From positions 1,302,001 to 1,366,000 of the forward strand of contig JAWMAR010000508.1 in the NCBI GenBank assembly GCA_036785375.1: a stretch of DNA of 64,000 bases, in the 5' to 3' direction. The stretch is from Leucoraja ocellata. Lineage: Eukaryota. The notes below the pieces were generated by a model. It did no database searches. It was not told the DNA's origin and saw nothing but the letters and a program-made list of their open reading frames with translations. A program made the translations under genes and the position numbers. Positions 8,196 to 56,396 of this stretch are shown here, in pieces (position 1 is the first letter of the stretch; every line of letters begins with the position of its first letter).

Positions 8196-8199
8196 CATG

Positions 8200-12695: not shown

Positions 12696-12750
12696 GTAAG
12701 TACGGAGATTGTTTATTGTGCAGGAACAGCAATAATCCATTAGCAGTGCT

Positions 12751-19681: not shown

Positions 19682-19815
19682 GGGGAAAAAAAATTGTTCG
19701 GCATGGACTTGTAGGGCCGAGATGGCCTGTTTCCGTGCTGTAATTGTTATATGGTTATATGTTATATGGTTATATCCCCCCTCTATCACGTTTAAATTTT
19801 TTCGTTTGTCTTTAG

Positions 19816-20097: not shown

Positions 20098-20199
20098 GTG
20101 AGTAGACACATGTCTCGTCTCTGTGAACATAAATGAGAAGTCAGTGGAATATATTGTGTTGTACCGGGATATTATGGTATATCCCGGTAAAGGAGGGTA

Positions 20200-21085: not shown

Positions 21086-21351
21086 ATGGCATTTCTGCCT
21101 CTCCCCCACACACTCTCTCCTCTTGTAAGATGAAGATTAGATAAGGTTAGACACAAAAAGCTGGAGTAACTCAGCGGGACAGGCAGCATCTCTGGAGAGA
21201 AGGCAGGGGTGATGTGCCGAGTCGAGACCCTTCTTCAGACCGAGTCAGGGGAGATGGGGATACAGAGATAAGGAAGTGCAAGGTGTGAAAAGGAGACAGA
21301 AAAAATGTTGAATTGTCAGCTGGGAGAAGTTGACAACAAGTCAAAGATAAA

Positions 21352-22101
21352 ATGCAGATGCAATATAATGTGGATAAATGTGAGGTTATCCATTTTGGTG
21401 GCAAAAACGGGAAAGCAAACTATTATCTAAATGGTGGCCGATTGGGAAAGGGGGAGATGCAGCGAGACCTGCGTGTCATGGTACACCAGTCATTGAAGGT
21501 AGGCATGCAGGTGCAGCAGGCAGTAAAGAAAGCGAATGGTATGTTAGCTTTCATTGCAAAAGGATTTGAGTATAGGAGCAGGGAGGTTCTACTGCAGTTG
21601 TACAGGGTCTTGGTGAGACCACACCTGCAGTATTGCGTACAGTTTTGGTCTCCAAATCTGAGGAAGGACATTATTGCCATAGAGTGAGTGCAGTGACGGT
21701 TCACCAGACTGATTCCTGGGATGTCAGGACTGTCTTATGAAGAAAGACTGGATAGACTTGGTTTATACTCTCTAGAATTTAGGAGATTGAGAGGGGATCT
21801 TATAGAAACTTACACAATTCTTAAGGGGTTGGACAGGCTAGATGCAGGAAGATTGTTCCCGATGTTGGGGAAGTCCAGGACAAGGGGTCACAGCTTAAGG
21901 ATAAGGGGGAAATCCTTTGAAACCGAGATGAGAAGAACTTTTTTCACACAGAGAAGGGTAGTTGAGGCCAGTTCATTGGCTATATTTAAGAGGGAGTTAG
22001 ATGTGGCCCTTGTGGCTCAAGGGATCTGGGGTGTATGGAGGCTCGAAGGGCCGAATGGCCTCTACTCCTGCACCTAATTTCTATGTTTCTATGTTTCTAT
22101 G
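21352..22101 (+). mobile_element. CR1-B 3' fragment
   Basis: ORFs 21352-21687 and 21721-22077; TTTCTATG tail. Confidence 0.9.
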
Positions 22102-22493
22102 AAAGGTTCAGAGAGATATGGGCCAAATGGGACTTATTTAGATGGGACATCTTGGACGAGTTGGGCCGAATGGCCTGTTTGCGTGCTGTACCAATGCACA
22201 ACTCTGAAACAATGAAGGGTTAGGATGGAATGGATGTGGGGATGTGCAGAAGTGGAGGCCATCATCAGTAAACAGCCATTGAGACCTCAGAGGGACATGG
22301 CGTTGCTCAGAGAGAGGTGAGTGGTGGATCTCACTGCCCTCGGGATGGGTTGAGGCCACAGTAGAAGTAGATTTAGTGGGACATTCTGATAGATGAGGAA
22401 AGTAGGGTCAGTAGGACAAGATGGGCTGAATGGCCTGTTTCTGTTATGTAATTCCAGGTAGTGTGGTGCGAGAATCCTTTTTGCTACTCGGTC

Positions 22494-23202
22494 AAGATTC
22501 AAGATTCAAGATTCAATTTATTTGTCATTTGGACCCCTTGAGGTCCAAACGAAATGCCGTCAAAGCCCCCGGCTGGCGATGGCGATTGTCCCGCGGCCAT
22601 TAAAGCCACGCCGGGTGCTGCAAGGTCGCACACCGGTCTTGATGTTGGAGCCCCCGGCGTGCGCACGCAGAGTCCCGCAGCCATTCCAAGCCTCGCGGGG
22701 CGGTGCTGTAAGGCCCCGCTCCAGGAGCTCTTCGACCCCGCAACTCGGGCGGGAGAAGTCGCCGTTGCGGGTGCCCTGAAAAGCGGTCTCCCTCCAGGGA
22801 CCCGCGGGCTCCCGGTGCTGCCGTCCGCCAGACCCGCAGTTGCAGCCTCCGAATCTCCGGAGGTCGGGCCGTAGCAGCAGCAGCGCTCCACCACCGCTCC
22901 ACCCGCTCTGGACTCGGCCAGCTCCGCGACGGTGAGGTGAGTCGTCGGCACCAGAGCCCCCGGTCTTCCTGTTGGAGGCCGCTCCTCGTTGCAGCCCCAA
23001 CGACAACGGAGACCCAACAAAGAAAAGGTCGGTTCTCCCGTGCAGGGAGAGATTTAAAAGTTACCCCCTCCCTCCCACCCCACCCCCACCCCCCACACAC
23101 ACACATCAACAAAAAAATAACAAAAACTACATAAAAACATAGACAAAAAATAATAAAAACGCAGACGGGCTGCAGAGGCCGCTGCTGACGAGAGTCGCGC
23201 CG
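22494..23202 (-). mobile_element. GC-rich non-coding retroposon (copy B) with Rex1-like (TTGAATC)n tail
   Basis: Close match to 29816-30675 but with an internal ~140-nt deletion; short TSD cggtc. Confidence 0.75.
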
Positions 23203-23283
23203 GTCTGGGCTGGAGTTGAGGTTATGTTGTCTTGTCTGTTTGTCAGAGCTGGGCTTACATTGACTGCTTTCTCCACCCCTCAG

Positions 23284-23397
23284 TACGTGGCTCGGAAAGG
23301 TCCTGGAAATGCATCGTGGCCCTGATCGTTCTTGCCGTCATCTTCATAGGCGTAGTTCCTGTAATCGTCTGGGCAGAGTGTTGGCGCAACAAATGAG
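23284..23397 (+). CDS. Siglec-like gene 1: transmembrane exon, TGA at 23394-23396 just before the donor
   Basis: acccctcag|TA CGT..; LRGSERSWK-CIVALIVLAVIFIGVVPVIVWA-ECWRNK*; 114 nt, phase 1-1, G|gtgcgg. Confidence 0.82.
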
Positions 23398-23596
23398 GTG
23401 CGGGATGATCTGGAAACTGTCCGAATGTCTTCACTGCCATTTACTCACCGGAACGAGAAAGAGGGGAGGTACACACTGCGTCCGCCTAAAATCAGGGCCC
23501 TCTCCAATCATAACCGCCCCCCCCCCTCCCCACCCCACCGCTACAACTGTGTTTGGGAGAGGGGCAGGGCAGATTGCCCAAGTATCCTGGACCTGA

Positions 23597-24325
23597 TGTT
23601 TACTCAGAGAGTGGTAGCGGTGTGGAATGAGCTTCCAGTGGAAGTGGTGGAGGCAGGTTCGTTGGTATCATTTAAAAATAAATTGGATAGGCATATGGAT
23701 GAGAAGGGAATGGAGGGTTATGGTATGAGTGCAGGCAGGTGGGACTAAGGGGAAAAAAAGTTGTTCGGCACGGAGTTGTAGGGCCGAGATGGCCTGTTTC
23801 CGTGCTGTAATTGTTATATATGGATATATGGTTTATATCTCATCCATAGACATAGAAACATAGACAATAGGTGCAGGAGTAGGCCATTCGGCCGTTCGTG
23901 CCTGCACCATTCACCATTCAATATGATCACGGCTGATCATCCAACTCAGAATTCCTGTACCTGCTTTCTCTCCATACCCCCTGATCCCTTTAGCCACAAG
24001 GGCCACATCTAACTCCCTCTTAAATATAGCCAATGAACTGTGGCCTCAACTACCTTCTGTGGCAGAGAATTCCACAGATTCACCACTCTCTGTGTGTGAA
24101 AAATATTTTTCTCATCTCCGTCCTAAAAGATTTCCCCCTTATCCTTAAACTGTGTGGCCCCTTGTTCTGGACTTCCCCAACATCAGGAACAATCTTCCTG
24201 CATCTAGCCTGTCCAACTCCTTAAGAATTTTGTAAGTTTTTATAAGATCCCCCCTCAATCTTCTAAATTCTAGCGAGTACAAGCCGAGTCTATCCAGTCT
24301 TTCTTCATATGAAAGCCCTGACATC
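23597..24325. mobile_element. CR1-A 3' end (+) and CR1-B 3' fragment (-), tail to tail
   Basis: FTQRVVAVWNELP..GRWD plus tail; catagaaacatag start of the minus copy. Confidence 0.85.
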
Positions 24326-24620
24326 CCGATGCTGGGATGGGGGAGAGTTTAGTTACTTTTTAGTTTATTGTGACATGTGGGAAGGGGTTGGATCCGTGAG
24401 GAGAGAGTGGGGAGGTGATTGGGTCTATAGGCAGTGTGGGGAGTGGGAGATAGTTTTGCTCCATGGTGGGAGGGAATGGGGAGGAGATGGGAGTGTGGAC
24501 TGAGATAGATTGGGGTTGGAGTTTTGGTCCATGTGGAGTGGGGACAATGGGAGTGAAGTATTGGTAACAGCACGGAGATTGTTCCCAGATTATGTCGTTT
24601 TTGCAGATGCGGCAAAAGGA

Positions 24621-26600
24621 TCATCGCAAAAGGATTTGAGTCTAGGAGCAGGGAGGTTCTACTGCAGTTGTACAGAGTATTGGTGAGACCACACCTGGAG
24701 TATTGCGTACAGTTTTGGTCTCCTAATCTGAGGAAAGACATTATTGCCATAGAGGGAGTACAGAGAAGGTTCACCAGACTGATTCCTGGGATGGCAGGAC
24801 TTTCATATAATAATAATAATAATTGTATTTATAAAGCACTTTAAACAACTGCAGTTGCCACATAGTGCTGTACATGAGAACTCATAACCATATAACCATA
24901 TAACAATTACAGCACGGAAACAGGCCATCTCGGCCCTACAAGTCCGTGCCGAACAACTTTGTTTCCCCTTAGTCCCACCTGCCTGCACTCATACCATAAT
25001 CCTCCATTCCCTTCTCATCCATATGCCTATCCAATTATTTTTAAATGATACAAGATACAAGATACAAGATACAAGATAAATTTAATTCTCACGTGTGCCA
25101 GATGGCACAGTGAAATGAATTCCCATACAGCCATACAATAAAAATAAACAGGACTCAACACAATATAGAATTCAACACAAAACATCCCCACACAGCAGAA
25201 CCAGTTTCCCACTGTGTGGGAAGGCACCAAAGTCAGTTCATTGATACCAATGAACCTGCCTCCACCACTTCCACTGGAAGCTCATTCCACGCCGCTACCA
25301 CTCTCTGAGTAAAGAAGTTCCCCCTCATATTACCCCTAAACTTCCGTCCCTTAATTCTGAAGTCATGTCCTCTTGTTGGAATCTTCCCTATTCTCAAAGG
25401 GAAAAACTTGTCCACATCAACTCTGTCTATCCCTCTCATCATTTTAAAGACCTCGATCAAGTCCCCCCTTAACCTTCTGCGCTCCAGAGAATAAAGACCT
25501 AACTTATTCAACCTATCTCTGTAACTTAGTTGTTGAAACCCAGGCAACATTCTAGTAAATCTCCTCTGTACTCTCTCTATTTTGTTGACATCCTTCTTAT
25601 AATTGGGTGACCAAAATTGTACACCATACTCCAGATTTGGTCTCACCAATGCCTTGTACAATTTTAACATTACATCCCAGCTTCTATACTCATGGACAAG
25701 AAGTTATTACAAACCATTAAAAACTGTAAAACAAAGGACTATAAAACAGTAAAAAAGTCATTAAAAGCACTAAAAACAGGAGCAATGTCTCAGACAGTAT
25801 CGAAAAGCCAGAGAATAAAAATGAGTTTTTGGGGTGCACAAAATTGCTGGAGAAACTCAGCGGGTGCAGCAGCATCTATGGAGCGAAGGAAATAGGCGAC
25901 GTTTCGGGCCGAAACCCTTCTTCAGACTGATGGGGGGTGGGGGGGGGGGGGGGAGAAGGAAGGAAAAGGGGAGGGGGAGGAGGAGGAGCCCGAGGGCGGG
26001 CGGATAGGAGGGTGGGAGGAGACAGCTCGAGGGTTAAGGAAGGGGAGGAGACAGCAAGGGCTAGCAAAATTGGGAGAATTCAATGTTAATGCCATCCGGA
26101 CGCAAGGTCCCCAGGCGGAATATGAGGTGCTGTTCCTCCAATTTCCGCTGTTGCTCACTCTGGCAATGGAGGAGACCCAGGACAGAGAGGTCGGATTGGG
26201 AATGGGAGGGGGAGTTGAAGTGCTGAGCCACCGGGAGGTCAGGTTGGTTATTGTGGTCTGAGCGGAGGTGTTCGGCGAAACGATCGCCCAACCTCCGCTT
26301 CGTCTCCCCGCTGTAAATCAGCTGACATCTAGAGCAGAGGATGCAGTACATGAGGTTGGAGGAGATGCAGGTGAACCTTTGTCAGAGTTTTTAGGGTGGA
26401 TTTGAAGATGGACAGTGAGGGGGCCTGTCTGATGTGCAACGGCGGGGTGTTCCAGAGTGCCGGAGCAGCAACAGAGAAGGCTCTATCCCCTCTGAGCTTC
26501 CGCTTAGACCTTGGTACCTCAAGGAGCAGCTGATCAGCTGACCTGAGGCACCAGGCAGGAGAGTATGGGTGGAGCAGCTCAGAGAGGTAAGGCGGGGCTT
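24621..26600. mobile_element. Nested TE stack: CR1-B, L2 (-), CR1-A (-, 24886-25692), short retroposon tail (25048-25245), Penelope (-, 25833-26385)
   Basis: L2 RT end LRSADQLLLEVPRSKRKLRGDRAFSVAAPALWN on the minus strand with (TTA)n tail; TSDs actcat and gagttttt; GIY-YIG ORF 26061-26351. Confidence 0.8.
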
Positions 26601-26910
26601 ACTAAATTCCTAGAGAGTATAAACCAAGTCTATCCAGTCTTTCTTCATTTCTTTCTTTCGAAAGGATGAACCTCTTTAGCCAGAATGTCGTTTAATCAGT
26701 GGAATTCATTGCCACAGAGGGTTGTGGAGGCCAAGTCAGTGGATAATCTTAAGACAGAAATAGATAAATTCTTGATTAGAACGGGTGTCAAGGGTTATGT
26801 GGAGAAGGCAGGAAAATAGGATTAGGAGGCATGATTGAATGGCGCAGTAGACTAGATGGGCTGAATGGCCTAATTCTACTCCTATAACCTGTGAATTTCT
26901 TTCCCCACAG

Positions 26911-26967
26911 GAGCTGCATCTCGGAAACCGTGATCTGTACAGCGAGCTCAAGCCCAGCTACAAATGA
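26911..26967 (+). CDS. Terminal cytoplasmic exon ELHLGNRDLYSELKPSYK* (distal part of an ITAM, DAP12-like)
   Basis: Strong acceptor tttctttccccacag|GAG; phase-0 reading gives xxEL-x7-YSEL..YK*. Confidence 0.7.
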   Translation, partial: ELHLGNRDLYSELKPSYK

Positions 26968-37786: not shown

Positions 37787-38204
37787 AAAGCTGGTCACGG
37801 AAATATGATCAGAGCCGTCTTTCAAGGCAGACTCAGAATTCTGGCCAGAATTGTCCGACAAGGCAGGCTCAGTATGTTGAGGTTTTCAGACCAAGACCCA
37901 AGCAGAGGTCAGGAGAAACATGGAATCCACACTTCCTACCAGTCCTACTGCCCAATCAAGGAGAGAAAAGGAACCTGCATCAGGGGCCTTTGGGCTTACC
38001 ACAAGACCACCGGTAGCCATGGAGGTAGGTTGGTCTGGGTTTACTGAAACAAGGGATTGTGGACCAGTTACATGTTGGTAATTTTTACTCTTGTGTTTTT
38101 GTTCAAAATGACAATAACATGAATTTCAGATCTGGTTTAAAAAAACAGATAACAACATGTGATTATTTTTACTGCACAACATACAGAGGTTCCAAGCAGA
38201 CTTG

Positions 38205-41200
38205 GAACTCGGACCGGAATTGTCTTCAAGGCAGGCCCAGTATTTTGGGCAGGATTGCCTTCCAGGACAGGTGACAGATGGATGATGTCACTTATAACCA
38301 TATAACCATATAACAATTACAGCACGGAAACAGGCCATCTCAGCCCTACAAGTCCGTGCCGAACAAATTTATTTTCTCCTTAGTCCCACCTGCCTGCACT
38401 CATACCATAACCCTCCATTCCCTTCTCATCCATATGCCTATCCATTTATTTTTAAATGATACCTGCCAATTAACCTGCCTCCACCACTTCCACTGGAAGC
38501 TCATTCCACACCGCTACCACTCTCTGAGTAAAGAAGTTCCCCCTCATATTACCCCTAAACTTCTGTCCCTTAATTCTGAAGTCATGTCCTCTTGTTTGAA
38601 TCTTCCCTATTCTCAAAGGGAAAAGCTTGTCCACATCAACTCTGTCTATCCCTCTCATCATTTTAAAGACCTCTATCAGGTCCCCCCTTAACCTTCTGCG
38701 CTCCAGAGAATAAAGACCTAAATTATTCAACCTATCTCTGTAACTTAGTTGTTGAAACCCAGGCAACATTCTAGTAAATCTCCTCTGTACTCTCTCCATT
38801 TTGTTGACATCCTACCTATAATTGGGTGACCAAAATTGTACACCATACTCCAGATTTGGTCTCACCAATGCATTGTACATTTTTAACATTACATCCCAGC
38901 TTCTATACTCAATGCTCTGATTTATAAAGGCTAGCATACCAAAAGCTTTCTTTACCACCCTATCTATATGAGATTCCACCTTCAAGGAACTATGCACGGT
39001 TATACCCAGATCCCTCTGTTCAACTGTATTCTTTAATTCCCTACCATTTACCATGTAATTCCCTGCCATTTACCATGTAAATGGTAGGGAATACCTTCAT
39101 CCAGGTTTAACTCATTTGTGCAGTACAGACTTTCAGAACAGCAATTTTTTGTTACGGTCTAACTATTGTTCTATATGAGCTTCCTATAAAATGGTCACAT
39201 GGCATGCATCGACCTCAAAGATGCATACTATTCGATGTCTATTCACTAAGAACAGGAGATATTTGAAGTTTAACTGGATGGCATACCTCTGCCAAATGGG
39301 TTGACATCAGCTCCTAGACTATTGACGAAACTACGGAAAGCAATTCTGGGTCTACAAAGGTCTCAGAACCACATAGTAATGGCATATTTGGAGGACATTT
39401 TCATTTTGGAGTCACCAAGAATTGGCAGAAGCAAACCAAAACCCTGATTGAAAGACTTGGTTACCTCATCCATCCAGTTAAATCAAAATTGACACCTGCA
39501 AGGGTAATTGATTACCTAGAATTTACTATCAAAAACAGTAAATACGTTGGTGACTTTGCCTAGGGGCAAACAACAATATTTAATTAAGCCTGCTATGACC
39601 TGATAGTCAAATTCTAGCCATCTATCAGGCAAACAGCGAGTGTAATTTGCAAATAGTAGCTGCATTCCCAGTAGTATGGGCTTTTGCATTACCAGAACTT
39701 ACAGCAAGCAAAGGAACGAACACTCAAATTACATGCAGAGAGTGGTGAATATCTGAAATTCTCTGCCACAGAAGGTAGTTGAGGCCAGTTCATTCGCTGT
39801 ACTTAAGAGGGAGTTAGATGTGGCCCTTGTATCTAAAGGGATCAGGGGATATGGAGAGAAGGCAGGTACAGGATACTGAGTTGGATGATTAGCCCTGATC
39901 ATAATGAATGGCGATTAGTGCAGGCTCGAAGGGTCGAATGCCCTCTACTCCTGCACCTATTGTCTATGTTTCTATGTCCTGTTTCTGTATTGTACCTCAA
40001 CATAGAAACATAGAAATTAGGTGCAGGAGTAGGCCATTCGGCCCTTCGAGATAAATTCTAGAGAGTATAAACCAAGTCTATCCAGTCTTTCGTCATAAGA
40101 CAGTCCTGACATCCCAGGAATCAGTCTGGTGAACCTTCTCTGCCCTCCCTCTATGGCAATAATGTCCTTACTCAGATTTGGAGACCAAAACTGTACGCAA
40201 TACTCCAGGTGTGGTCTCACCAAGACCCTGTACAACTGCATTAGAACCTCCCTGCTCCTATACTCAAATCCTCTACGGCAAGAATGTCTTTCCTCAGATT
40301 AGGAGAGCAAAACTGTACGCAATACTCCAGGTGTGGTCTGACCAAGACCCTGTACAACTGCAGTAGAACCTCCCTGCTCCTATACTCAAATCCTTTTGCA
40401 ATGAAAGCTAACATACCATTCGCTTTCTTCACTGCCTGCTGCACCTGCATGCCTACCTTCAATGATTGGTGTACCATGACACCCAGGTCTCGCTGCATCT
40501 CCCCCTTTCCCAAGAACTAAAGACAGAAATAGTGTGTGAATGGGTGATTATTGGTCAGCACGGACTCGATGGGCTGAAGGTCCTGTTTCTGTATTGTATC
40601 TCAATAGCTAAACATATAACTAGTATGTGAATGGGTGATCGGTGGCCGGCATGGACTCGGTGGGCCGAGGGGCCCTGTCTCAGCGCCGCATCTCTGAACT
40701 AAACTAAACTAAACTAAGCTCTCAGCAATTTCTTGTGGTCTTGAGCGGAGCTGGTCCCAAACCAGGATGTAATGCAACATAACACAGTTTTTTCACAATT
40801 CACGTGGAGAGGTTGGTGTGAGTCAATGGAGAAGTGCCGAACTTCCTTCATCTTTTGAGGAAGATGAGACATTAGTCCGCCTTATTGACCACAGCTTCAA
40901 TGTAGTTGATGCAGGGTATGTTGTTGGTGATATTTACAGTCATGTGATAGTAGCAGAATTAGGATATTTGACCCATCAAGTCTACTCCACCATTCAATCA
41001 TGGCTGATCTATCTCTCCCTCCTAACCCCATTCTCCTGCCTTCTCCCCATAACCCCTGACACCCGCACAAATAACCATATAACAATTACAGCACGGAAAC
41101 AGGCCATCTCGACCCTTCTAGTCCGTGCCGAACACATAATCTCCCCTAGTCCCATATACCTGCGCTCAGACCATAACCCTCCATTCCCTTCCCATCCATA

Positions 41201-42591
41201 TAACTATCCAATTTATTTTTAAATGATAAAAACGAACCTGCCTCCACCACCTTCACTGGAAGCTCATTCGACACAGCTACCACTCTCTGAGTAAAGAAGT
41301 TCCCCCTCATGTTACCCCTAAACTTCTGTCCCTTAATTCTGAAGTCATGTCCTCTTGTTTGAATCTTCCTTATTCTCAAAGGGAAAAGCTTATCTATAAT
41401 CTATTCTAATCTATAAGATCATTTCGTTGTCTCTGTACTGTACACTGACAATGACAATTAAAATTGAATCTGAATCTGAAGATCCCCTCTCAATCTCCTG
41501 AATTCTGGTTTATACTCTCTAGAATTTAGGAAAGTAGGCATGCAGGTGCAGCAGGCAGTAAAGAAAGCGAATGGTATGTTAGCTTTCATAGCAAAAGGAT
41601 GTGAGTATAGGAGCAGGGAGGTTCTACTGCAGTTGTACAGGGTCTTGGTGAGACCACACCTGGAGTATTGCGTACAGTTTTGGTCTCCAAATCTGAGGAA
41701 GGACATTATTGCCATCGAGGGAGTGCAGAGAAGGTTCACCAGACTGATTCCTGGGATGTCAGGACTGTCTTATGAAGAAAGACTGGATAGACTTGGTTTA
41801 TACTCTCTAGAATTTAGGAGACTGAGAGGGGATCTTATAGAAACTTACAAAATTCTTAAGGGGTTGGACAGGCTAGATGCAGGAAGATTGCTCCCGATGT
41901 TGGGGAAGTCCAGGACAAGAGGTCACAGCTTAAGGATAAGGGGAAAATCCTTTAAAACCGAGATGAGAAGAACTTTTTTCACACAGAGAGTGGTGAATCT
42001 CTGGAACTCTCTGCCACAGAGGGTAGTCGAGGCCACAGTTCATTGGCTATATTTAAGAGGGAGTTAGATGTGGCCCTTGTGGCTAAGGGGATCAGAGGGT
42101 ATGGAGAGAAGGCAGGTACGGGATACTGAGTTGAATGATCAGCCATGATCATATTGAATGGCGAATGGTGCAGGCTCGAAGGGCCGAATGGCCTACTCCT
42201 GCACCTAATTTCTATGTTTCTATGTTTCTAATCAACAATCTATCTATCTCAGCCTTAAAAATATCCACTGACTTGCTCTCCACAGCCTGCTATGGCAAAG
42301 AATTCCACAGATTCACCACCCACTGACTAAAGAGAGAACTAGTGTGTGAACGGGTGATCGATAGTCAGCGTGGACTCGTTGGGCTGAAGGCCTGTATTCG
42401 CTCTGTATCTCTAAACTGAACTGAACTAAATTATATGTTACTAAAGTAAACTTTATTGTCAATTCAATTATGCAACAGTAGTTACACAGAGGATCGAAAT
42501 TACGTTTCCCCATACTCCAAATGTGCAAGTAACATTAAAAACACAGCTAGACAACATATCAATAAAAATAGACAATAGACATACATTATTT
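38205..42591 (+). repeat. Direct repeat copy 1 (~4.4 kb) left of the L1
   Basis: Collinear and nearly identical with 48941-54873, lacking about 50690-52243. Confidence 0.95.
39095..39735 (+). mobile_element. Degraded DIRS-like retrotransposon RT (duplicated at about 49826-50470)
   Basis: ACIDLKDAYYS..RRYLKF..LPNGLTSAPRLLTK..MAYLEDIFI..LGYLIHPVKSKLTP. Confidence 0.7.
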
Positions 42592-43004
42592 ATTTTTATT
42601 TTTTTTATTTATTTTTTTGTTTTTTTATTAGAAGTACGGTAAGTTACAATTCTACAAAACACATATATCTTAATACATTTTTAGTACCGCTTCATTTTTT
42701 TTTTTTGAGCTTTAAGAAAAAGGTAGAAGTAAGGAAAGTAAAGAAAGTGCAAGAGAGTCGTGCAGTGCAAGAGTGTAAGGAAAAGAAAGCCCCTTAGGAA
42801 AGAAGTTAGAGAAGGAAGTAAAGTGAGAAAATAGACCCTAGAAAAGAGAGAAAGAGAAAATAGAAACAATCGCTCTATTATAACATTAAACTCCGCAGAA
42901 AGGGGACTACCAACCAAGTCTGTTTTTGTTATTTTACCTCCCGTTACCAGGTCCTGATTCCGCTTATTTATATATTTGTTTTTTTTTTAGATTACTATTG
43001 CACC

Positions 43005-46000
43005 TCATACTTGTAATAGGTCCAGAAACATAGACCACGTCTTTTGGAATTGGTCTGCTTTACCTGCTAGGAGGAATCTCATCTCTTCCAGATGTAATGT
43101 TTCAAACATATTTGATATCCACATTTTTATTGTTGGTGTCGGCGCATTTTTCCAGAATTTAAGTATAAGCTTTTTTCCCATTATTAGCCCGTAATTAATT
43201 AAATTCTTCTGAAACACGTTTAATTCAGGGTTACCTTCCGATATTCCGAAGATAATCCATTCTGGTTTTGGTACCAGTTTTATATTGATCAATTTTGAAA
43301 AAATATCAAATATTTCATACCAGAATTTTTGGATTTTTGTACAAAAAACAAAAGAGTGCGCTATGGTAGCTTCTTGACATAGGCATTTATCACAGATTGG
43401 TGAAACATTAGGGAAGATTTTATTTAATTTAGTTTTTGAATAATATAATCTATGTAATGTTTTAAATTGGATGAGCGTATGTCGTACGTTGATCGAACAT
43501 TTATGCAACTGTAGTAAATGATTATCCCAGGTCTCTTTTGAGATTTTTATAGCTAATTCTTGTTCCCAATCTTTTCTAATTCCATCTGTTGTGGGTATTT
43601 CTATGTTTAAAATGATATTATATAGGTACGATATTAAATTAGCTGATTCCGCCTTGGTCTTCATTGCTTCATCCAATAAGTCGGAAGACATATTATGATA
43701 GTCTTTTGTGTGTTTTTTCAGATAATCACAAATTTGAAGATATTTAAAATATTGGTTATTTTTCAAATTATATTTCAGTTGTAGTTGTTGAAATGATAGT
43801 AAATTCCCCAATTCATACAGATCTTCGAGCGTTTTAATTCCCATTCTTTCCCATTGTATAAATGATTTGTCTATGATTGATGGTTTAAACGATGGATTAT
43901 TGACTATTGGTATTAAAAGAGATAGGTTTCTTAATTCTAAAGTCTGTTTTATTTGTTTCCATGTTCTTATTGTGTTATGTATAATTGGATTTTTATTATA
44001 ATTTTTATTATTCAAATTTGTTGGTGAGAGGATGGTCGCTCCTATATTATTCGGGGAGCAGTCCCCTTTTTCCATTACCATCCAGTCCGCCTGCTGTGCA
44101 GAATTGTCCAGCAGGTGAATCATATTTTTAATATTTACTGCCCAGTTATAATACATAAAGTTAGGGAGCGCTAGACCCCCCAGCTCTTTTCGTTTATTAA
44201 GGTGTGCTATTTGTATTCTATGGGATTTATAATCCCATATAAAATTTGTAATGTCTGAGTCCAATTTTTTGAAAAACTTTTTTGGGAGGTATATAGGTAT
44301 TAATTGAAATAGGTATAGAATTTGTGGTAAGAAAACCATTTTAATAGCATTTATTCTGCCTATTAAGGACATCGGAAGTGTTTTCCAGAATTTAATCAGA
44401 TTATTCAATTTCTTGAGTAAGGGATTATAATTGGCTTTAAACATATCCTGGTAATTTCTAGTAATTTCAATTCCCAAATATTTGAATTTTTCTGTAGCTA
44501 TTTTAAAGGGAAATTTCCGAAGCTGTGTTGAGTCTTTTGGTTTTATCGACATAATTTCACTTTTGTTCCAATTTATTCTATATCCTGAAAAGGATCCAAA
44601 GTCCTCAATTAAGTTTAATATGTTTGGTATACTAATTTGTGGTTTTGTGATGTACAGTAGTACATCATCGGCATATAGGGATATTTTATTCTTTGAGTAT
44701 TTTGTATTATAACCATAAATATCCGGATGTGTTCTTATTTTTTCAGCAAGGGGTTCAATTACCAAAGCAAATAACAGCGGTGATAATGAGCATCCTTGTC
44801 TATTGCCCCTTGATAGTTCAAATTTCGAGGATAAGATATTATTAGTTAATATTCTAGCCGTAGGTTTGTTATATAATAGTTTTATCCATGCGATAAAGTT
44901 TTCTCCCAATTGGAATTTTTGCAATACTTTAATCATATAATCCCATTCTACTTGATCAAACGCTTTTTCTGCGTCCAGTGAGATAATAGATAACTCTTGG
45001 TCGTGAGGTTTATGTGAGTGCATTATGTTAAGCAAACGTCTCAAATTATTGAATGAGTGTCTCTTAGGTATAAATCCTGTTTGATCTCCATTTATTAATC
45101 TACTAACGTACCTGCTTAATCTACTGGCTAGTGTTTTCGCTATTATTTTTTGATCCGTATTTAACAAAGCAATAGCTCTATATGAGCCTGGTTCTTCTAT
45201 GTTTTTATCTTTTTTAAGTATTAATGTGATCGTTGATTCTGCTAATGTTTCGGGTAAGCTTTGCTCTTTAAAAGCGTGTGTATACATTTTCTGTAATCGT
45301 GGGGTAACTATATCATAAAAGGCTTTATAGAATTCACTACTGAATCCGTCTGGTCCTGGTGTTTTACCATTCTTTAGTGTTTTTATTGTGTCTTCTATCT
45401 CCTTAGAAGTAATTATTGCTCCCAGTTCCTCTTGTTCCCTCAATTCTAATTTTGGAAGGTTACAATCTTCCAGAAATTCTGAAATTTTATTATTATCTAT
45501 TGACGTTTTAGATGTATATAGATTTTCGTAGAATTGAGCAAATCTTTTATTGATATCCTTGGGTAGTGTTAATAATTCCCCACTATCTGATTTAATCTTT
45601 AGTATTGCATTCTCTTTTTCCCGTTTTTTCAACTGGCGTGCTAAGAGTTTGTGGGGTTTGTCCCCGAATTCAAAGTGTTCTTGTTTTGTAACTTGGAATA
45701 ATGTTATAACTTTCTCTGACAATAATTTATTCAGCTTGAATTTCAATAATAGGATTTTATTATGTTTATCCATAGTTGGATCTTTAGCATTATCTGTATC
45801 TAATTGTTTTATTTGTTCTTCTAAATGTCTTTGTTCTTTCTTATTCTTTTTATTTTGGTAAGCTTGAAATGAAATAATGACTCCTCTAATAAATGCTTTA
45901 AAAGATTCCCATAATAGCGTGGGGGATATATCTGGTGTATCATTTATCTCAAAGAATAAGTCCATCTGTTTTTTTAGATATATACTCCCTTGTGTGTCTT

Positions 46001-46797
46001 TTAAAAGTTGCGAATTAAACCCCCAGAACGATTTATTCATAGATATTCCCTCTAATTTTAAAACAAAGGTTAAAGGAGAGTGATCTGAAATCGCATTAAT
46101 GTGGTATTTAGGATTCATAGTGTGTGTAATTAATTGTGTATCCACAAGAAAATAATCTATCCGTGAATATGTTTTATGCACCGTTGAATAGAACGAGTAG
46201 TCCCTTCCCGTCGGATTTGCAATCCTCCATACATCTGCTATATTTGTGTTTTCCATATATGTATGTAAGAGTTCACTGGTTTTAGATTTCATACTACCTT
46301 TTTGTTTTTTGCATCGATTTATCTAAATAAGGGTCTAAAACACAGTTGAAGTCTCCTCCGATTATAACATTTTGATAATTAAATTCGGCAATTTTATTCA
46401 GAATTTTATTTAAAAATTTAGGGTTATCAAAGTTGGGCGCATATATATTTACCAGCGTAATTGGCATATTATTGATCTCTCCTGCTACTATAAGATATCT
46501 CCCTTCCTTATCTGAAATAATATTCTTTGATTTAAATGGAATTCCTTTACGGATAATAATTGCAGTACCTCTAGATTTAGAAGTGAATGAAGAGTGAAAT
46601 GTTTGGCCTATCCAGTTAGCCCTCAATCTCGTCTGATCTTGATGTTTAAGATGAGTTTCCTGTAGGAACGAAATGTCCGTGTTGTATGCTTTCAATTGAG
46701 CTAGTATCTTGCCCCTTTTAATAGGTTCATTAATACCCCTTATATTCCAACTACATAGTGTGACTCCTCCCATTTTCCTTTGATTGTCGTCATACAT
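43005..46797 (-). CDS. L1 ORF2 (AP endonuclease, RT, CCHC), one +1 frameshift in an A6 run near 46310
   Basis: SWNIRG, LQETH, GGDFN, SRIDY, SDH; RQGCSLSP, LYADD; CDKC..H...C. Confidence 0.93.
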
Positions 46798-47774
46798 TTT
46801 TACCAATTTTAATGACCGTACTTATTATGGTGCATCCATACCTCAGGACTCTGGTTATTTTGGAAGCATTTATATTATAGACTTTCTTGGTAGTTCCCCT
46901 CTGCGATTGTCCTTGAGAAAAAAACACATAAATGTGACATATTGTAGTAAAAAAAAAAAGTATATAAAATAAATGTACGGTGTCTGGATTTCCGACACCG
47001 TAGTGAGTGGCCCACTCGTCTGTGGGATATGACATCAATATTGCTTCCGGCGTAGCTGTTATGAGGTTAGCCCCGCTGAATTTATTGCTCATAACCTAGG
47101 GGGTAGGTACCGTTTCCAAATCAGTTCTATTTCACCCCATTGCAGTATATATATATATATATATGTTTCATTCCGACTTATCAAATCTAATCAATTATTC
47201 AGTTACACATATTCCTCTCTCTTTATCTCTTAACTATTTGTAATTGGTTTTAGTATTGTTAAAAGTGAGCTGTTCGTTGAAAGGGTTAACCAGAGTCAGG
47301 CTCCTGGAATTAAGCCAGGTGTCTGAGTTTCTTCCCCTCCCCACTCGAGCTGCGGAACCTGTGAGATTACAATGTTATCTGCGTTATAACACATATTTAT
47401 CAATATCAGTTTATGTATTATGTATTAGTATTGTTAGTAATTAATTAGTAATAATTCTCTATACTTTGTAACAGTCTGTGAAAATATGTAGGTCATGTGA
47501 TGTTTTTCACTCTCTCTCAGCTTCGGCAGATCTGCATATTTCTGTTATCAGTGATTCCTGGCTTAAACATCGCATGTCCTTGAATTAAATTCGAGAGAAG
47601 ATTATAATGTCTAGACAAGTCTCATGGAAAATCTGTTGCAAATAGCCATTTTTAAATCTTGATGTTATTCACTTTTTACATTTTCTACTAATATTCTTGT
47701 TGGGGGAATAAGCACATTAATTAGTTCATGACGTCTGGTGATCAATCTTCTTCTGCAGCTGCCTTAGCAACGAT

Positions 47775-48752
47775 TTATTTAGCGTATTTAAGGGATTCTA
47801 CCGGATTAGTAAATGTTTTTGAGATTCCCTTAAAAGTGATACGCATCCTAGCCGGATAAAACACTCCAGATATGACGCCCTTGACACCGTAGAGAGCTTC
47901 TCTGGTCTGTGAGAACTTTCTTCTCTTTAGCACAATCTCATAAGGGTAGTCCCGTAGAAGTTTAATAGAATCATTTCCATATATCATCTTCTCTCCGTAT
48001 TTAATTTTTTTCAACAGCGCTTCCACTGTTGGGATATCCCGAAGTTTGACTATAATCTGTCGTGGGTAGGCTTGTTCTCCTTGGAATCTTGGTTTAAATC
48101 TAGGTAGTCGATGTGCTTCTTCAATTACTGGTGCTTCAGGTAAATTGAGTACATGTTTAATTAAATTGGCAGTGTACTCACGAGCATTTTCCCCCTCAGC
48201 TCCCTCTTTCACTCCACGTATTCGTATATTTTGACGTCTTGAGCGAGCTTCTAATTCAACACATTTATCAGATATTTTTGTAAATTGGCTCTTAAGGCTG
48301 TCTAATTCTGACTTCATTGCCTCCATTTCTCCAGCCATCTCTTCCACAACAGCTTCCAAATCTTTCACTGCATTTGCATTTGCGGAAATAGTTTCATGCA
48401 CAGCCTCAAACATCTTTGTGGACTCTTCTGCCACCTTAGTAATTTTCCCCGTTAGCTCTTCTTGCACATCATCAACTTTTTTTTGCACAGCGCCAATGCC
48501 CGCGAGAATTTTTTCATTACCAGCAATCAAGTTTAAATTTCCAGCTTTCACATCTTCTTTCAAATCTCTTACCGAGTTCCTTAATTCCTCCATTTCAGTT
48601 TTCTCTTTTGTGATCAACTCAGTCTTAGATCGTGTAGCCATTCCAGAATCCACTCCAGAGGTTAGTGTTGCAGTTTCTTGGTGTTCCTTAGTCTTCAGAA
48701 GTTGTTTTATCACTTTCCTCTGAGGGCTCTGACCTGTAGCTGTATTTTTCAT
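47775..48752 (-). CDS. L1 ORF1 (coiled coil, RRM, CTD), 325 aa
   Basis: Heptad-rich N-half; LEARSRRQNIRIRGVKEG, AHR, PRQIIVKL, FYPARMRI. Confidence 0.92.
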   Translation of the reverse strand: MKNTATGQSPQRKVIKQLLKTKEHQETATLTSGVDSGMATRSKTELITKEKTEMEELRNSVRDLKEDVKAGNLNLIAGNEKILAGIGAVQKKVDDVQEELTGKITKVAEESTKMFEAVHETISANANAVKDLEAVVEEMAGEMEAMKSELDSLKSQFTKISDKCVELEARSRRQNIRIRGVKEGAEGENAREYTANLIKHVLNLPEAPVIEEAHRLPRFKPRFQGEQAYPRQIIVKLRDIPTVEALLKKIKYGEKMIYGNDSIKLLRDYPYEIVLKRRKFSQTREALYGVKGVISGVFYPARMRITFKGISKTFTNPVESLKYAK

Positions 48753-48940
48753 TTAAAATCGGTTTCCCTCCGTTAAATCCACGGCGCTTACTGATGACGT
48801 CATCAGCACCGCGACATGAAACTCCGGTAAGTCTTTAAGATCGGTCCCGACCTCCAGACCCGAATTAACGCGAAAAATCGCGATTTTTTCAGCGGAGCTA
48901 AAAGGTTTGCGACTGCTAGCAAAGCATGTCGCCACCGGGA

Positions 48941-51900
48941 CTTGGACCGGAATTGTCTTCAAGCCAGGCCCAGTATTTTGGGCAGGATTGCCTTCCAGGA
49001 CAGGTGACAGATGGATGATGTCACTTATAACCATATAACCATATAACAATTACAGCACGGAAACAGGCCATCTCGGCCCTACAAGTCCGTGCCGAACAAA
49101 TTTATTTTCCCCTTAGTCCCACCTGCCTGCACTCATACCATAACCCTCCATTCCCTTCTCATCCATATGCCTATCCATTTATTTTTAAATGATACCTGCC
49201 AATTAACCTGCCTCCACCACTTCCACTGGAAGCTCATTCCACACCGCTACCACTCTCTGAGTAAAGAAGTTCCCTCTCATATTACCCCTAAACTTCTGTC
49301 CCTTAATTCTGAAGTCATGTCCTCTTGTTTGAATCTTCCCTATTCTCAAAGGGAAAAGCTTGTCCACATCAACTCTGTCTATCCCTCTCATCATTTTAAA
49401 GACCTCTATCAGGTCCCCCCTTAACCTTCTGCGCTCCAGAGAATAAAGACCTAACTTATTCAACCTATCTCTGTAACTTAGTTGTTGAAACCCAGGCAAC
49501 ATTCTAGTAAATCTCCTCTGTACTCTCTCTATTTTGTTGACATCCTACCTATAATTGGGCGACCAAAATTGTACACCATACTCCAGATTTGGTCTCACCA
49601 ATGCATTGTACATTTTTAACATTACATCCCAGCTTCTATACTCAATGCTCTGATTTATAAAGGCTAGCATACCAAAAGCTTTCTTTACCACCCTATCTAT
49701 ATGAGATTCCACCTTCAAGGAACTATGCACGGTTATACCCAGATCCCTCTGTTCAACTGTATTCTTTAATTCCCTACCATTTACCATGTAATTCCCTACC
49801 ATTTACCATGAAAATGGTAGGGAATACCTTCATCCAGGTTTAACTCATTTGTGCAGTACAGACTTTCAGAACAGCAATTTTTTGTTACGGTCTAACTATT
49901 GTTCTATAGGAGCTTCCTATAAAATGGTCACATGGCATGCATCGACCTCAAAGATGCATACTATTCGATGTCTATTCACTAAGAACAGGAGATATTTGAA
50001 GTTTAACTGGATGGCATAGCTCTGCCAAATGGGTTGACATCAGCTCCTAGACTATTGACGAAACTACGGAAAGCAATTCTGGGTCTACAAAGGTCTCAGA
50101 ACCACATAGTAATGGCATATTTGGAGGACATTTTCATTTTGGAGTCACCAAGAATTGGCAGAAGCAAACCAAAACCCTGATTGAAAGACTTGGTTACCTC
50201 ATCCATCCAGTTAAATCAAAATTGACACCTGCAAGGGTAATTGATTACCTAGAATTTACTATCAAAAACAGTAAATACGTTGGTGACTTTGCCTAGGGGC
50301 AAACAACAATATTTAATTAAGCCTGCTATGACCTGATAGTCAAATTCTAGCCATCTATCAGGCAAACAGCGAGTGTAATTTGCAAATAGTAGCTGCATTC
50401 CCAGTAGTATGGGCTTTTGCATTACCAGAACTTACAGCAAGCAAAGGAACGAACACTCAGATTACATGCAGAGAGTGGTGAATATCTGAAATTCTCTGCC
50501 ACAGACGGTAGTTGAGGCCAGTTCATTGGCTGTACTTAAGAGGGAGTTAGATGTGGCCCTTGTATCTAAAGGGATCAGGGGATATGGAGAGAAGGCAGGT
50601 ACAGGATACTGAGTTGGATGATCAGCCCTGATCATAATGAATGGCGATTAGTGCAGGCTCGAAGGGCCGAATGCCTACTCCTGCACTTATTTTCTATATT
50701 TCTATGATTGTAGTCATGTCTTGTCTTTCTGCTGACTGTATTTAACATGCGACAACAAGCTTTTCTCTGTAGACGTAATGAACTCAATTCCTTGTATTTA
50801 ACTATTGAGTCCAGTTGGTTATAACCACTGTGACCTGTGGTCATATGGTGAAATGGTTTATTCCCTTCTGGGCCTGCCTTCCATTCGTAAGATCACAAGT
50901 TTGTAAACCATCATAATCAGAGGTGACCTCATAATGTGCCTGGCCGGTGACCTCACAGTGAACTGCATCTGTAACCATGAGAGACGGGCTCCATTTCATC
51001 TGTCAATTTGAAGTGGGTGCACCAAACCCATTCTGCCAGGCATTGAAACAGCCGGCAGCTACTAGAGGTCGAAACTCTAACCTTCACAGTGTGGATCAAT
51101 AACCCAAGCAAGGAGCTTTGAGAATGCCGGAGAAAAAGGACAACACCAAGCAGACTTACAAGAGGAGATCTAAGGTAGATCTGAATCTGTTAATAGACCA
51201 AGATAAAAGATAGAGTGACTCAGCGGGTCTTATTCTTAAACTGTGACCCCTTGTTCTGGACTCCCCCTACATTGGGAACATAGGGGCGTAGGGCTCTTCT
51301 GCCACCTCTGAGCTTTTCTTTATGGGAGAGAATCCTATCCATCCAGTGACAATCCTGTCTCCAGTCTCCAACATTCCCCCAACCCCCCCCCCCCCCCCCC
51401 CCCCCTTCCCCATCCCCCCAGCCCCTACCCAGCCTCTACCCTCTCTGGACCTTTTTATATCCACTGTTGATGCAATAACTGTCTTCGATTCTCTACTCCA
51501 CTGGCCCACTCCAATGTGAAACGACGAATGTCAGGCAGCATCTGTGGAGAACTCGGATAGATGGCGTTTCACAGAGTGCTGGTGTAACTAATCGGATCAG
51601 GCAGCATCTGTGGAGAACATGGATAGGTGACGTTTCACAGGACAATGAAGCTAGTTGGATTAGGGTGGGGGAGGGATGGAGAGAGAGCTGCCTGTCGCGC
51701 TGAGTTTCTCCAGCATTTTGTGTCTATCTTCAGTGCAAACCAGCATCAGCTGTTCCTGCACATTTTGTCTTGCCCACATTGACCACATCTACACTAGTTC
51801 CTCCTGCCTGCATTTGATCCATATCTCTCCATACCTATCCTGTCCATGTACCCGTCAAGAGTCAAGATTATTTTATTGTCATATATCACAAAATGAACAA

Positions 51901-54873
51901 TTAAATACTGACTTACGATACGATAGAACATTATCTATCCAAGGAGGGAAATTGATCTGCCAACAGTCATAAAACACAAGATAAAGGCGGTCACGGTGAG
52001 CAGCGGTAATGTTGCTCCCTTACACCGAATGCAGCGCCGGAGACCCAGGTTCGATCCTGTTACGGGTGCTGTCTATACGGAGTTTGTACCTTCTCCCCGT
52101 GACCTGCGTGGGTTGTCTCCGAGAACTTCGGTTTCCTCCCATACCCCAAGGACGTACAGGTTTGTAGGTTAATTGGCTTCAGTAATATTGTAATTGTCCC
52201 TAGTGTGTGGAGTAGTGCAAGTGTACGGGATGATACGCAACTATTGTCTATGTTTATATGTCCTGTTTCTGTATTGTACCTCAACATAGAAACATAGAAA
52301 TTAGGTGCAGGAGTAGGCCATTCGGCCCTTCGAGATAAATTCTAGAGAGTATAAACCAAGTCTATCCAGTCTTTCGTCATAAGACAGTCCTGACATCCCA
52401 GGAATCAGTCTGGTGAACCTTCTCTGCCCTCCCTCTATGGCAATAATGTCCTTACTCAGATTTGGAGACCAAAACTGTACGCAATACTCCAGGTGTGGTC
52501 TCACCAAGACCCTGTACAACTGCAGTAGATCCTCCCTGCTCCTATACTCAAATCCTCTACGGCAAGAATGTCTTTCCTCAGATTAGGAGAGCAAAACTGG
52601 ACGCAATACTCCAGGTGTGGTCTGACCAAGACCCTGTACAACTGCAGTAGAACCTCCCTGCTCCTAGACTCAAATCCTTTTGCAATGAAAGCTAACATAC
52701 CATTCGCTTTCTTCACTGCCTGCTGCACCTGCATGCCTACCTTCGATGATTGGTGTACCATGACACCCAGGTCTCGCTGCATCTCCCCCTTTCCCAAGAA
52801 CTAAAGACAGAAATAGTGTGTGAATGGGTGATTATTGGTCAGCACGGACTCGATGGGCTGAAGGTCCTGTTTCTGTATTGTATCTCAAGAGCTAAACATA
52901 TACCTAGTATGTGAATGGGTGATCGGTGGCCGGCACGGACTCGGTGGGCCGAGGGGCCCTGTCTCAGCGCCGCATCTCTGAACTAAACTAAACTAAACTA
53001 AGCTCTCAGCAATTTCTTGTGGTCTTGAGCAGAGCTGGTCCCAAACCAGGATGTGATGCAACATAACACAGTTTTTTCACAATTCATGTGGAGAGGTTGG
53101 TGTGAGTCAATGGAGAAGTGCCGAACTTCCTTCATCTTTTGAGGAAGATGAGACATTAGTCCGCCTTATTGACCACAGCTTCAATGTAGTTGATGCAGGG
53201 TATGTTGTTGGTGATATTTACAGTCATGTGATAGTAGCAGAATTAGGATATTTGACCCATCAAGTCTACTCCGCCATTCAATCATGGCTGATCTATCTCT
53301 CCCTCCTAACCCCATTCTCCTGCCTTCTCCCCATAACCCCTGACACCCGCACAAATAACCATATAACAATTACAGCACGGAAACAGGCCATCTCGACCCT
53401 TCTAGTCCGTGCCGAACACATAATCTCCCCTAGTCCCATATACCTGCGCTCAGACCATAACCCTCCATTCCCTTCCCATCCATATAACTATCCAATTTAT
53501 TTTTAAATGATAAAAACGAACCTGCCTCCACCACCTTCACTGGAAGCTCATTCGACACAGCTACCACTCTCTGAGTAAAGAAGTCCCCCCTCATGTTACC
53601 CATAAACTTCTGTCCCTTAATTCTGAAGTCATGTCCTCTTGTTTGAATCTTCCCTATTCTCAAAGGGAAAAGCTTACCTATAATCTATTCTAATCTATAA
53701 GATCATTTCGTTGTCTCTGTACTGTACACTGACAATGACAATTAAAATTGAATCTGAATCTGAAGATCCCCTCTCAATCTCCTAAATTCTGGTTTATACT
53801 CTCTAGAATTTAGGAAAGTAGGCATGCAGGTGCAGCAGGCAGTAAAGAAAACGAATGGTATGTTAGCTTTCATAGCAAAAGGATGTGAGTATAGGAGCAG
53901 GGAGGTTCTACTGCAGTTGTACAGGGTCTTGGTGAGACCACACCTGGAGTATTGCGTACAGTTTTGGTCTCCAAATCTGAGGAAGGACATTATTGCCATC
54001 GAGGGAGTGCAGAGAAGGTTCACCAGACTGATTCCTGGGATGTCAGGACTGTCTTATGAAGAAAGACTGGATAGACTTGGTTTATACTCTCTAGAATTTA
54101 GGAGACTGAGAGGGGATCTTATAGAAACTTACAAAATTCTTAAGGGGTTGGACAGGCTAGATGCAGGAAGATTTCTCCCGATGTTGGGGAAGTCCAGGAC
54201 AAGAGGTCACAGCTTAAGGATAAGGGGAAAATCCTTTAAAACCGAGATGAGAAGAACTTTTTTCACACAGAGAGTGGTGAATCTCTGGAACGCTCTGCCA
54301 CAGAGGGTAGTCGAGGCCAGTTCATTGGCTATATTTAAGAGGGAGTTAGATGTGGCCCTTGTGGCTAAGGGGATCAGAGGGTATGGAGAGAAGGCAGGTA
54401 CGGGATACTGAGTTGGATGATCAGCCATGATCATATTGAATGGCGAATGGTGCAGGCTCGAAGGGCCGAATGGCCTACTCCTGCACCTAATTTCTATGTT
54501 TCTATGTTTCTAATCAACAATCTATCTATCTCAGCCTTAAAAATATCCACTGACTTGCTCTCCACAGCCTGCTATGGCAAAGAATTCCACAGATTCACCA
54601 CCCACTGACTAAAGAGAGAACTAGTGTGTGAACGGGTGATCGATAGTCAGCGTGGACTCGATGGGCTGAAGGCCTGTATTCGCTCTGTATCTCTAAACTG
54701 AACTGAACTAAATTATATGTTACTAAAGTAAACTTTATTGTCAATTCAATTATGCAACAGTAGTTACACAGAGGATCGAAATTACGTTTCCCCATACTCC
54801 AAATGTGCAAGTAATATTAAAAACACAGCTAGACAACATATCAATAAAAATAGACAATAGACATACATTATTT
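48941..54873 (+). repeat. Direct repeat copy 2 (~5.9 kb) right of the L1
   Basis: Starts cttggaccggaattgtc and ends gacatacattattt, as copy 1 does. Confidence 0.95.
51987..52240 (+). mobile_element. HE1-like V-SINE
   Basis: ggcggtcacggtgagcagcggt..ggttcgatcc..ggagtttgtaccttctccccgtg. Confidence 0.75.
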
Positions 54874-56396
54874 AAAATATTAAAATATTCACAGTATGCC
54901 AAATGTAGCAAAACCTTTGAGGTATTTTAAACAGGGTGCAACAATGAAAGGTGCAATATAGAAAAAGTGCAAATTCCTTACTGGAGACATTGAGCCAAAG
55001 TTATTTTCACAGTTTGTTGTCTTTGTTTGGGTACTGTTCATGGAATTTTCTTAAGTGTGTTGAGTAGTCTGATGGCCTGAGGTAAAAAGCTGTTTTTGAA
55101 TCTGGTGGTTTTGCTCTGCATGCTGCGGTAGCGCTTACCGGAAGGTAGGAGGGTGAACAGTTTGTGTGCTGGGTGGGTGGTGTCTTTGATGATATTGCTT
55201 GCTCTCTTGTGACAGCAAGATGGGTATAGGTCCTGGATTGCTGGTTGGGGTGATCTGGTGATCTTCTCCGCTGTCCTCACCACTCTCTGTAGGGCCTTCT
55301 GGTCAGCAGCAGAGCAACTGCTATACCAGACTGAGAGACTGCTGGTAAGAATGCTCTCAATGGCACCCCTGTAAAAAGTCGTGAGGGCAGAAGGGGGGAG
55401 GTCAGCTCTCCTCATCCGTCGAAGGAAGTGGAGGCGTTGCTGTGCCTTCTTGACTAGGGAGATGGTGTTGGTGGACTATGTCTGATCATCTGGGGCGCTG
55501 TTCTGGCAGCAGCCATGGCAGCAGCGCGTCAGCCTTTCAATTTTATTTTTTATTTTTAGTATGTTTTAAAGTGTGTATTTAGTGGGGTTTTGTGTGTTTT
55601 GTGTGGGGGTGGTATGGGGGTGGGGGGGGTAAGGGGGAAACCGCTTCGGTCGCCTCCTCCATGGAGAGGCGACTTTTTCCAGGTCGCCTCCCGCGTGGCC
55701 TACCATCAAGGATCGGCGAGGTCTTTCCCGGAGACGTGCCCGGGGCTTCAGCGGCAGGCGCAGCGTGGACTCGGCGTGGAGCGGGTGAGCCCTCGCTGGG
55801 GCTCGCCGGACGGGAGTGCTCCATTTCACTGGCCCGGGGCAGCCGGCAGCCTGAAGTCGCAGCCTGAAGCCGCGGTCTGCAGAGTTCCAGCTGCTGCGGC
55901 GTCTACAGCCCGGGATCCGTCGTGGGGGACCCGGGGGAAGAAGAAGCCTCCATTGCCGGCCCGTGGATAACTTCTACCGCGGGCCCGGCATGGACTTACC
56001 ATCACCCCTGGAGGGGAGCTTCGACCGCCGGCCCTGCAGTCTACGGTGCTTCTAGCTGTGGCAGGGACTTTAAATCTCAACCGCCGGCCTGCGGCCTACA
56101 CAATCTTGAAGCCGCGGTCTCCGGTGAGGAAAGACCGATCCTGGACTGGACCCTGGACTCTGGTCCGGTCCACTGGGGGGGGGGGGGGGATGGAGGAGGA
56201 CGGCCAAAAATTTGTGTGCCTTCCACCACAGTGATGAATGCTGTGGTGGATGTTTATGTTACATGTTGTGTCCTGTTTATGCATTTTAGTATTTTGTTAA
56301 CCCATCTTTTCTGCTTTGTATGGAACTGATTTTTAAATTATGTAAAGCACTTTGGGGTCAATGAAAATTGACTATAAATGTGCTATATACATAAAC

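Follow-up and report, generated by a model that had tools for sequence, protein, structure and literature searches.

Can a single L1 insertion in the germline duplicate several kilobases of its own target? This question is raised by a stretch of 64,000 nt from the skate Leucoraja ocellata (contig JAWMAR010000508.1), hereafter called the window, within which all positions below are counted. It contains an apparently full-length L1 retrotransposon lying between two directly repeated copies of an intergenic unit, in a cluster of Siglec-like genes. The original prediction had read this arrangement as a giant target-site duplication (TSD) of about 5.9 kb, left by one event of target-primed reverse transcription (TPRT). 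We give a probability of about 0.5 to the reading that one germline L1 insertion duplicated a 5.9-kb interval and that the two copies have aged since then.

Two copies of a repeat-rich unit and the L1 between them

When the window was compared with itself by BLAST, 38204-39976 matched 48937-50706 (98.6%) and 39953-42592 matched 52237-54874 (99.0%). The two copies (Table 1) are separated by 6344 bp, and the region 38000-55200 contains no N. The pair of direct repeats seen in the original prediction is therefore real in the assembly, but the copies are less alike than those of a fresh TSD would be. A global alignment, which had been proposed as a measure of their divergence, gave two values absent from that prediction: 42 substitutions in 4384 columns, i.e. 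0.96% (95% confidence interval 0.69-1.29%; 24 transitions and 18 transversions), and the 1554-bp segment carried by copy 2 only, in addition to one 3-bp and one 2-bp indel. Therefore, either the duplication event is old, or its templates were already different at birth. We also counted, by hand, 24 sites with A/T in copy 1 and G/C in copy 2, against 12 with the opposite pattern, a borderline excess for which we have no explanation and which accompanies an even polarity of the changes (see below).

Copy 1 is a mosaic of CR1, short interspersed element (SINE) and other repeat fragments, and the unit also includes a decayed reverse-transcriptase-like fragment (39058-39735 and 49791-50468), which may be DIRS-like, judging from a motif.

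The two CR1 3' tails that flank the 1554-bp segment (50683-50706 and 52237-52260) are alike at 19 of 24 positions, and copy 1 has a single CR1 tail, with two mismatches to the downstream tail of copy 2 and three to the upstream one. Moreover, a SINE body lying in the segment and a SINE end shortly beyond it stand at about the spacing found in an intact SINE at 14104-14252. We infer that the segment is ancestral and was probably lost from copy 1 through recombination between CR1 tails, and therefore that the original unit measured 5.9 kb, in agreement with the length first proposed. Insertion of the 1554 bp into copy 2 is less likely, given this SINE spacing.

The element between the copies belongs to the L1 clade of retrotransposons that lack long terminal repeats (LTRs), judging from the order endonuclease then reverse transcriptase (RT), an L1-type open reading frame 1 (ORF1) of weak similarity, and a poly(A)-type tail (80% T on the + strand over 42593-42632). 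The RT part matches human L1 ORF2p with E=2e-154 and R2 with E=4e-22. The best match of ORF1 among solved structures (PDB) is human LINE-1 ORF1p, a weak one (E=9e-4, residues 138-315), and no Pfam L1 ORF1 family was found in it at E<=1e-3. The coding part contains one frameshift and no premature stop. We infer its full-length status, stated outright in the original prediction, from the fact that ORF1 is complete and has about 0.2-0.3 kb of sequence upstream of it. The region between the ORFs is long (46822-47774, about 950 bp), and a second A-run is present in the 3' untranslated region (42694-42707 on the + strand). A 3' or 5' transduction can be ruled out, as a single L1 is present and the flanks are local.

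Relatives of the element were sought in several ways. The closest ORF2 proteins are only 52-56% identical (among 120 listed of 333) and are thus too distant for dating this copy. In metagenome contigs, ORF1 gave 182 pattern matches, none of them confirmed as another copy of this L1, and a 22-nt pattern from the 3' end gave no match. Pieces of 48700-55600 were present in 20 listed public sequencing runs, all of them in contig form (highest share of words 0.66), and four of these (X15, X16, X1 and X18) were compared with 42440-56300, with 42577-42636 skipped and only some of the joints counted. This produced 32 listed contig pieces, with 515,388 further ones, probably from relatives belonging to other species; the listed pieces are all short contigs of repeat families, the longest measuring 231 nt and having 13 differences, and this locus itself was seen in none of the four runs. 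In these related runs, members of the L1 family are numerous, in particular its 3' end, and contigs of its members reach up to the 48459-48921 bin. Most related contigs have one base fewer at 46305 than this L1, so its frameshift is either specific to this copy or an assembly error. The arrangement of duplication, L1 and duplication is known here from assembled sequence alone.

Table 1. Positions of the duplicated copies, the L1 and its parts, and associated features in the window
Feature	Position	Strand	Remarks
Copy 1 of the duplicated unit (putative 3' TSD in L1 orientation)	38204..42592	+	4389 bp; lacks the 1554-bp segment
Copy 2 of the duplicated unit (putative 5' TSD in L1 orientation)	48937..54874	+	5938 bp; runs on into the right flank
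1554-bp segment, copy 2 only	50687..52240	+	Flanked by two CR1 3' tails
L1 retrotransposon, apparently full length	42593..48936	-	6344 bp; exact 5' base uncertain by a few nt
L1 A-rich 3' tail	42593..42629	-	Begins AATAAA; adjoins end of copy 1
ORF2, RT and C-terminal part	43005..46322	-	1105 aa stop to stop; RVT_1 E=6e-41
ORF2, endonuclease part	46294..46821	-	Exo_endo_phos E=5e-14; in another frame than the RT part, shift at about 46300
ORF1	47775..48752	-	325 aa
Endonuclease-like site at the outer end of copy 2, presumed first nick	54870..54876	+	ATTT/AA (cut after 54873) or TTTA/AA (cut after 54874)
Older internal repeat across the left boundary of copy 1	37821..38247	+	37821-37879 versus 38190-38247, 78% over 59 nt
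Skate Siglec-like gene	4415..26961	+	Signal, V-set, C2, Ig, transmembrane and likely last exon; wholly outside the duplication

Junctions, outer ends and age

The L1 tail begins at the base immediately following the last base common to both copies (42592/54874), and both junctions coincide with L1 termini, with neither gap nor N, as expected if the copies abut the poly(A) and 5' ends of the element. The outer end of copy 2 is one mismatch away from TTTT/AA, in line with the endonuclease site originally proposed there; an equally good match occurs at 0.98% of + strand positions in the window. The repeat that is cut at 42592, presumably a Rex1-like element, resumes past 54874, as had been predicted: one contig from another copy of that family (X1 record 7, 54811-54931) spans 54874, the only one of the 32 pieces to do so with more than 31 letters on each side. 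On the left, an older internal repeat runs across the boundary of copy 1. Comparison of the sequences therefore shows both outer boundaries (38204 and 54874) to be native, and thus the new junctions are those of the tail with copy 1 and of the L1 5' end with copy 2. A composite LTR-like element inserted as a whole is ruled out, as both outer ends continue native repeats.

We could not find a short TSD at the L1: when the 66 nt at its 5' junction were compared with the final 40 nt of copy 1, no common word exceeded 5 nt. Moreover, in 300 nt of flank, the best local match measures 8 nt to the left of the copy starts and 9 nt to the right of their ends, so that a mis-join through overlap has no basis. 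Relative to copy 1, the initial 10-15 nt of copy 2 allow two parsings, one with two substitutions and the other with a 7-nt loss. As the searches also yielded no other full-length copy, the exact L1 5' base is uncertain. The microhomology previously claimed at this junction is not established, as the letters quoted for it are merely the first 14 aligned bases of both copies.

This anatomy partly supports an L1 insertion with a distant second end. By this mechanism, the L1 endonuclease would have made the first nick at 54873/4, and the L1 would have been copied from its poly(A), priming on the tail. The far end of the L1 would then have been joined to a point 5.9 kb further left, on either the same chromatid or its sister, duplicating the interval. 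Later the copies would have aged by about 0.5% each, and copy 1 would have lost 1554 bp between two CR1 tails. As for the single TPRT event first proposed, the geometry, the native outer ends and the absence of a short TSD speak for it, while the 0.96% divergence of the copies and their 1.55-kb indel do not.

If the copies were identical at birth, their differences should have accumulated on both sides and the L1 should have decayed to a corresponding extent. With the window's other repeat copies serving as outgroup (a few calls rely on one to three copies), 27 of the 42 substitutions could be polarised: copy 1 acquired 14 of them and copy 2 the other 13 (9 versus 8 in a strict count), and 53 derived letters in 2650 columns are common to both copies. 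This even polarity rules out that one copy is simply error-ridden. With 0.48% per copy, the 4611 coding bases of the L1 should carry 22 substitutions and 1.05 small indels, with a probability of 0.36 for no new stop and of 0.72 for at most one indel; we observed no stop and one frameshift. The ageing model is thus coherent with the decay of the L1, as far as a permissive test on the sequence can tell. The window also contains two long CR1-like long interspersed elements (LINEs) in inverted orientation (16371-19770 on the + strand and 58354-61689 on the - strand) that differ by 1.0-1.1%, the second of which retains an open frame of 1046 aa.

Several points weigh against a single insertion followed by ageing. 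Two haplotypes or paralogous units would explain the 0.96% and the 1.55-kb indel without any ageing, and symmetric differences are equally expected from two haplotypes; the age test would also be passed by a younger L1. Whatever the model, the endonuclease site and the tail speak for an L1 insertion at the 3' end, and so give this one no preference. None of the 32 contig pieces crosses 42592 or 48937, although, for short repeat-family contigs and a skipped tail region, such absence is no evidence. In vivo, L1 TSDs are nearly all below 30 bp outside HeLa cells, and those above 50 bp are appreciable only in HeLa (PMC4805530). Full-length insertions carry discrete TSDs of 10-18 bp, and the cases with long TSDs are 5'-truncated (PMC2912911; PMC11702581; PMC5223499). 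Finally, long TSDs may recombine away (PMC5223499).

Alternative origins of the arrangement

The first alternative keeps the L1 as the agent but places its two ends on non-identical templates, so that the copies would have differed at birth. By one route, the cDNA would have been primed on one chromosome and resolved on the homologue 5.9 kb upstream; by another, an L1-mediated deletion would have begun in one unit of the tandem Siglec cluster and ended in a neighbour unit that is 99% identical to it. Either would account for the 0.96% and the 1554-bp indel without ageing, and the locus does lie in a tandem cluster, with the signal exon of a second, paralogous Siglec-like gene beginning at 62130. 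The literature describes L1 bridges that join chromatids as well as deletions of 0.5 kb to 53 Mb brought about by L1 (PMC7058536), and duplications are rarer than short deletions (10.1101/2024.12.14.628481). Nevertheless, the sole paralogous stretch that could be measured, around the signal exons (4340-4636 and 62055-62351), differs by 6.4% (19 of 297 nt) and not by 1%, and the decay of the L1 is in line with the divergence of the copies. This L1 also departs from nearly all contigs of its family at about 7 of 40 substitution rows and at two or three indel rows (among the rows listed, from runs that are probably of other species). Overall, we regard non-identical templates as unlikely. Still more doubtful is the particular case of an unequal crossover catalysed by the L1 itself, priming on one homologue and finishing on the other 5.9 kb upstream, and so stitching two alleles into an inherited tandem duplication in the Siglec cluster.

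A second alternative attributes the duplication to the assembly: copy 2 would come from one haplotype and copy 1 with the L1 from the other, and the assembler or a gap filler would have put them together. Most false duplications are heterotype; they occur in regions of raised heterozygosity and sometimes have just a read-depth gap between the copies (PMC9516828); the skate copies resemble them in lying adjacent on one scaffold with about allelic divergence. Alleles of an immune cluster could differ by about 1% and a large indel, the single-base homopolymer differences seen in L1 ORF2 and the Siglec V-set exon are possible assembly errors, and the junctions are confirmed by none of the four runs, which offer short repeat-family contigs only. 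However, the copies of heterotype false duplications are usually separated by a gap in assembly or depth (PMC9516828), whereas no assembly gap lies between the skate copies (the window has a run of 400 N elsewhere), and both joins fall at L1 termini. The join at the L1 5' end lacks overlap homology, the short TSD and the right flank that the supposed L1-bearing haplotype should have are both absent, and the differences are spread over both copies, neither being error-ridden. An assembly artefact is therefore unlikely too, and slightly less credible than templates that already differed.

The weakest candidate, which we consider very improbable, is an unequal crossover between two L1s of the same family and orientation, 5.9 kb apart on different haplotypes, leaving a hybrid L1: it predicts the same anatomy plus allelic divergence, the 3' end of the family is very abundant in related runs and L1-L1 recombination does create human structural variants (PMC12350158), but it requires two polymorphic insertions within 6 kb, the endonuclease site expected 7-20 nt into copy 2 is missing (none within two mismatches of TTTT/AA before 23 nt, the candidates being at 23, 24 and 43 nt), and the human events comprise 219 deletions versus one insertion (PMC12350158).

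The Siglec-like cluster and published long duplications

The duplicated unit is intergenic, lies between two Siglec-like genes and is composed of repeat fragments. The V-set exon of the first gene is related to skate Siglec-like proteins (85% identity to an Amblyraja radiata protein and 96% to P0125). Duplication of an exon can be discarded, as 68 Siglec-like proteins gave one weak, repeat-derived match per copy (E about 7e-4). With no exon in the unit, no immune gene was duplicated; the location in an immune cluster, as first envisaged, nevertheless holds. We propose no function for the duplication.

Within the cluster, each signal-exon region is followed by a CR1 fragment and, further on, by a G-rich minisatellite (7061-7768 and 63280-64000), and on their sequence these regions mark tandem gene units about 57.7 kb apart. 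In the V-set exon (8950-9311), the frame changes near 9255 relative to P0125 and P0128, where a T run is one base short, possibly reflecting a pseudogene or an assembly indel. The window further includes an AT-rich 1.04-kb repeat pair (11171-12212 and 27048-28090, 96% identical), and the 400-N run (12751-13150), in the intron after the C2 exon, is either a gap or a masked stretch.

The mechanism proposed here is already published. In human cells deficient in nucleotide excision repair, the largest TSDs listed for L1 insertions, with poly(A) and at TTTT/a or TTTT/g sites, measure 5896 and 6765 bp (Servant et al., 2017; PMC5223499, tables 1 and 3); for the 5896-bp case, these tables list no verification method, and they also include TTTA/a and ATTT/a sites. 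The skate locus is similar in having an L1 with poly(A) at an endonuclease-type site between kilobase direct repeats of comparable size. However, those cases are fresh copies of an engineered L1, all 5'-truncated, in cultured repair mutants, whereas the skate element is endogenous, apparently full-length and flanked by copies 1% diverged.

Larger rearrangements have been described as well. Tandem duplications of 1-10 kb have been interpreted as large TSDs, and full-length pseudogene insertions had discrete TSDs of 12-18 bp (PMC11702581; 2026 version 10.1101/2024.12.14.628481), and a short L1 bridges a tandem duplication of 22.6 Mb (PMC7058536). As in the skate, the L1 in these tumours and L1-induced clones lies across the junction between direct tandem copies, the 3' breakpoint showing an endonuclease motif, and the models put forward for them involve sister-chromatid and break-induced replication (PMC7058536; PMC11702581). 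In contrast to the skate locus, these duplications (1-10 kb, 64 kb and 22.6 Mb) are somatic, and neither inherited nor aged (PMC7058536; PMC11702581). Heritable LINE insertions with long TSD-like duplications (median 900 bp) are known for Dualen-4b in Chlamydomonas mutation-accumulation lines, but this element is of another clade, has two endonucleases, and makes long TSDs as its norm (PMC9977147).

In HeLa cells, long TSDs accompanied truncated L1s, and a genome-wide in vivo survey took only TSDs of 5-30 bp, longer ones needing study (PMC2912911); TSD sizes for the human germline are given in PMC12350158. The available parts of PMC3956500 and 10.1101/522623 contained nothing relevant. A full-text literature search returned no natural vertebrate germline L1 with a multi-kilobase TSD, a weak negative, as most subscription papers and supplements were outside its scope. 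What is new here would therefore be that a wild vertebrate has kept such a duplication to the point of ageing, and around an apparently full-length L1.

The weight of this case is limited, since the mechanism is in print, the locus is a single one, the duplication includes no exon and the structure awaits confirmation from reads. A duplication enclosing an L1 resembles an LTR element in that it can be dated by the divergence of its flanks and is open to collapse into a single copy. Kilobase TSDs have so far been regarded as a trait of HeLa, repair-deficient and cancer cells. If verified, the skate locus would show that germlines can acquire and retain such events, which can then give rise to segmental duplication within tandem gene clusters. 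It also suggests a genome-wide search for L1s lying between long direct repeats. Stitching between homologues, if true, would provide a germline route to copy-number change that is invisible to TSD finders limited to about 30 bp.

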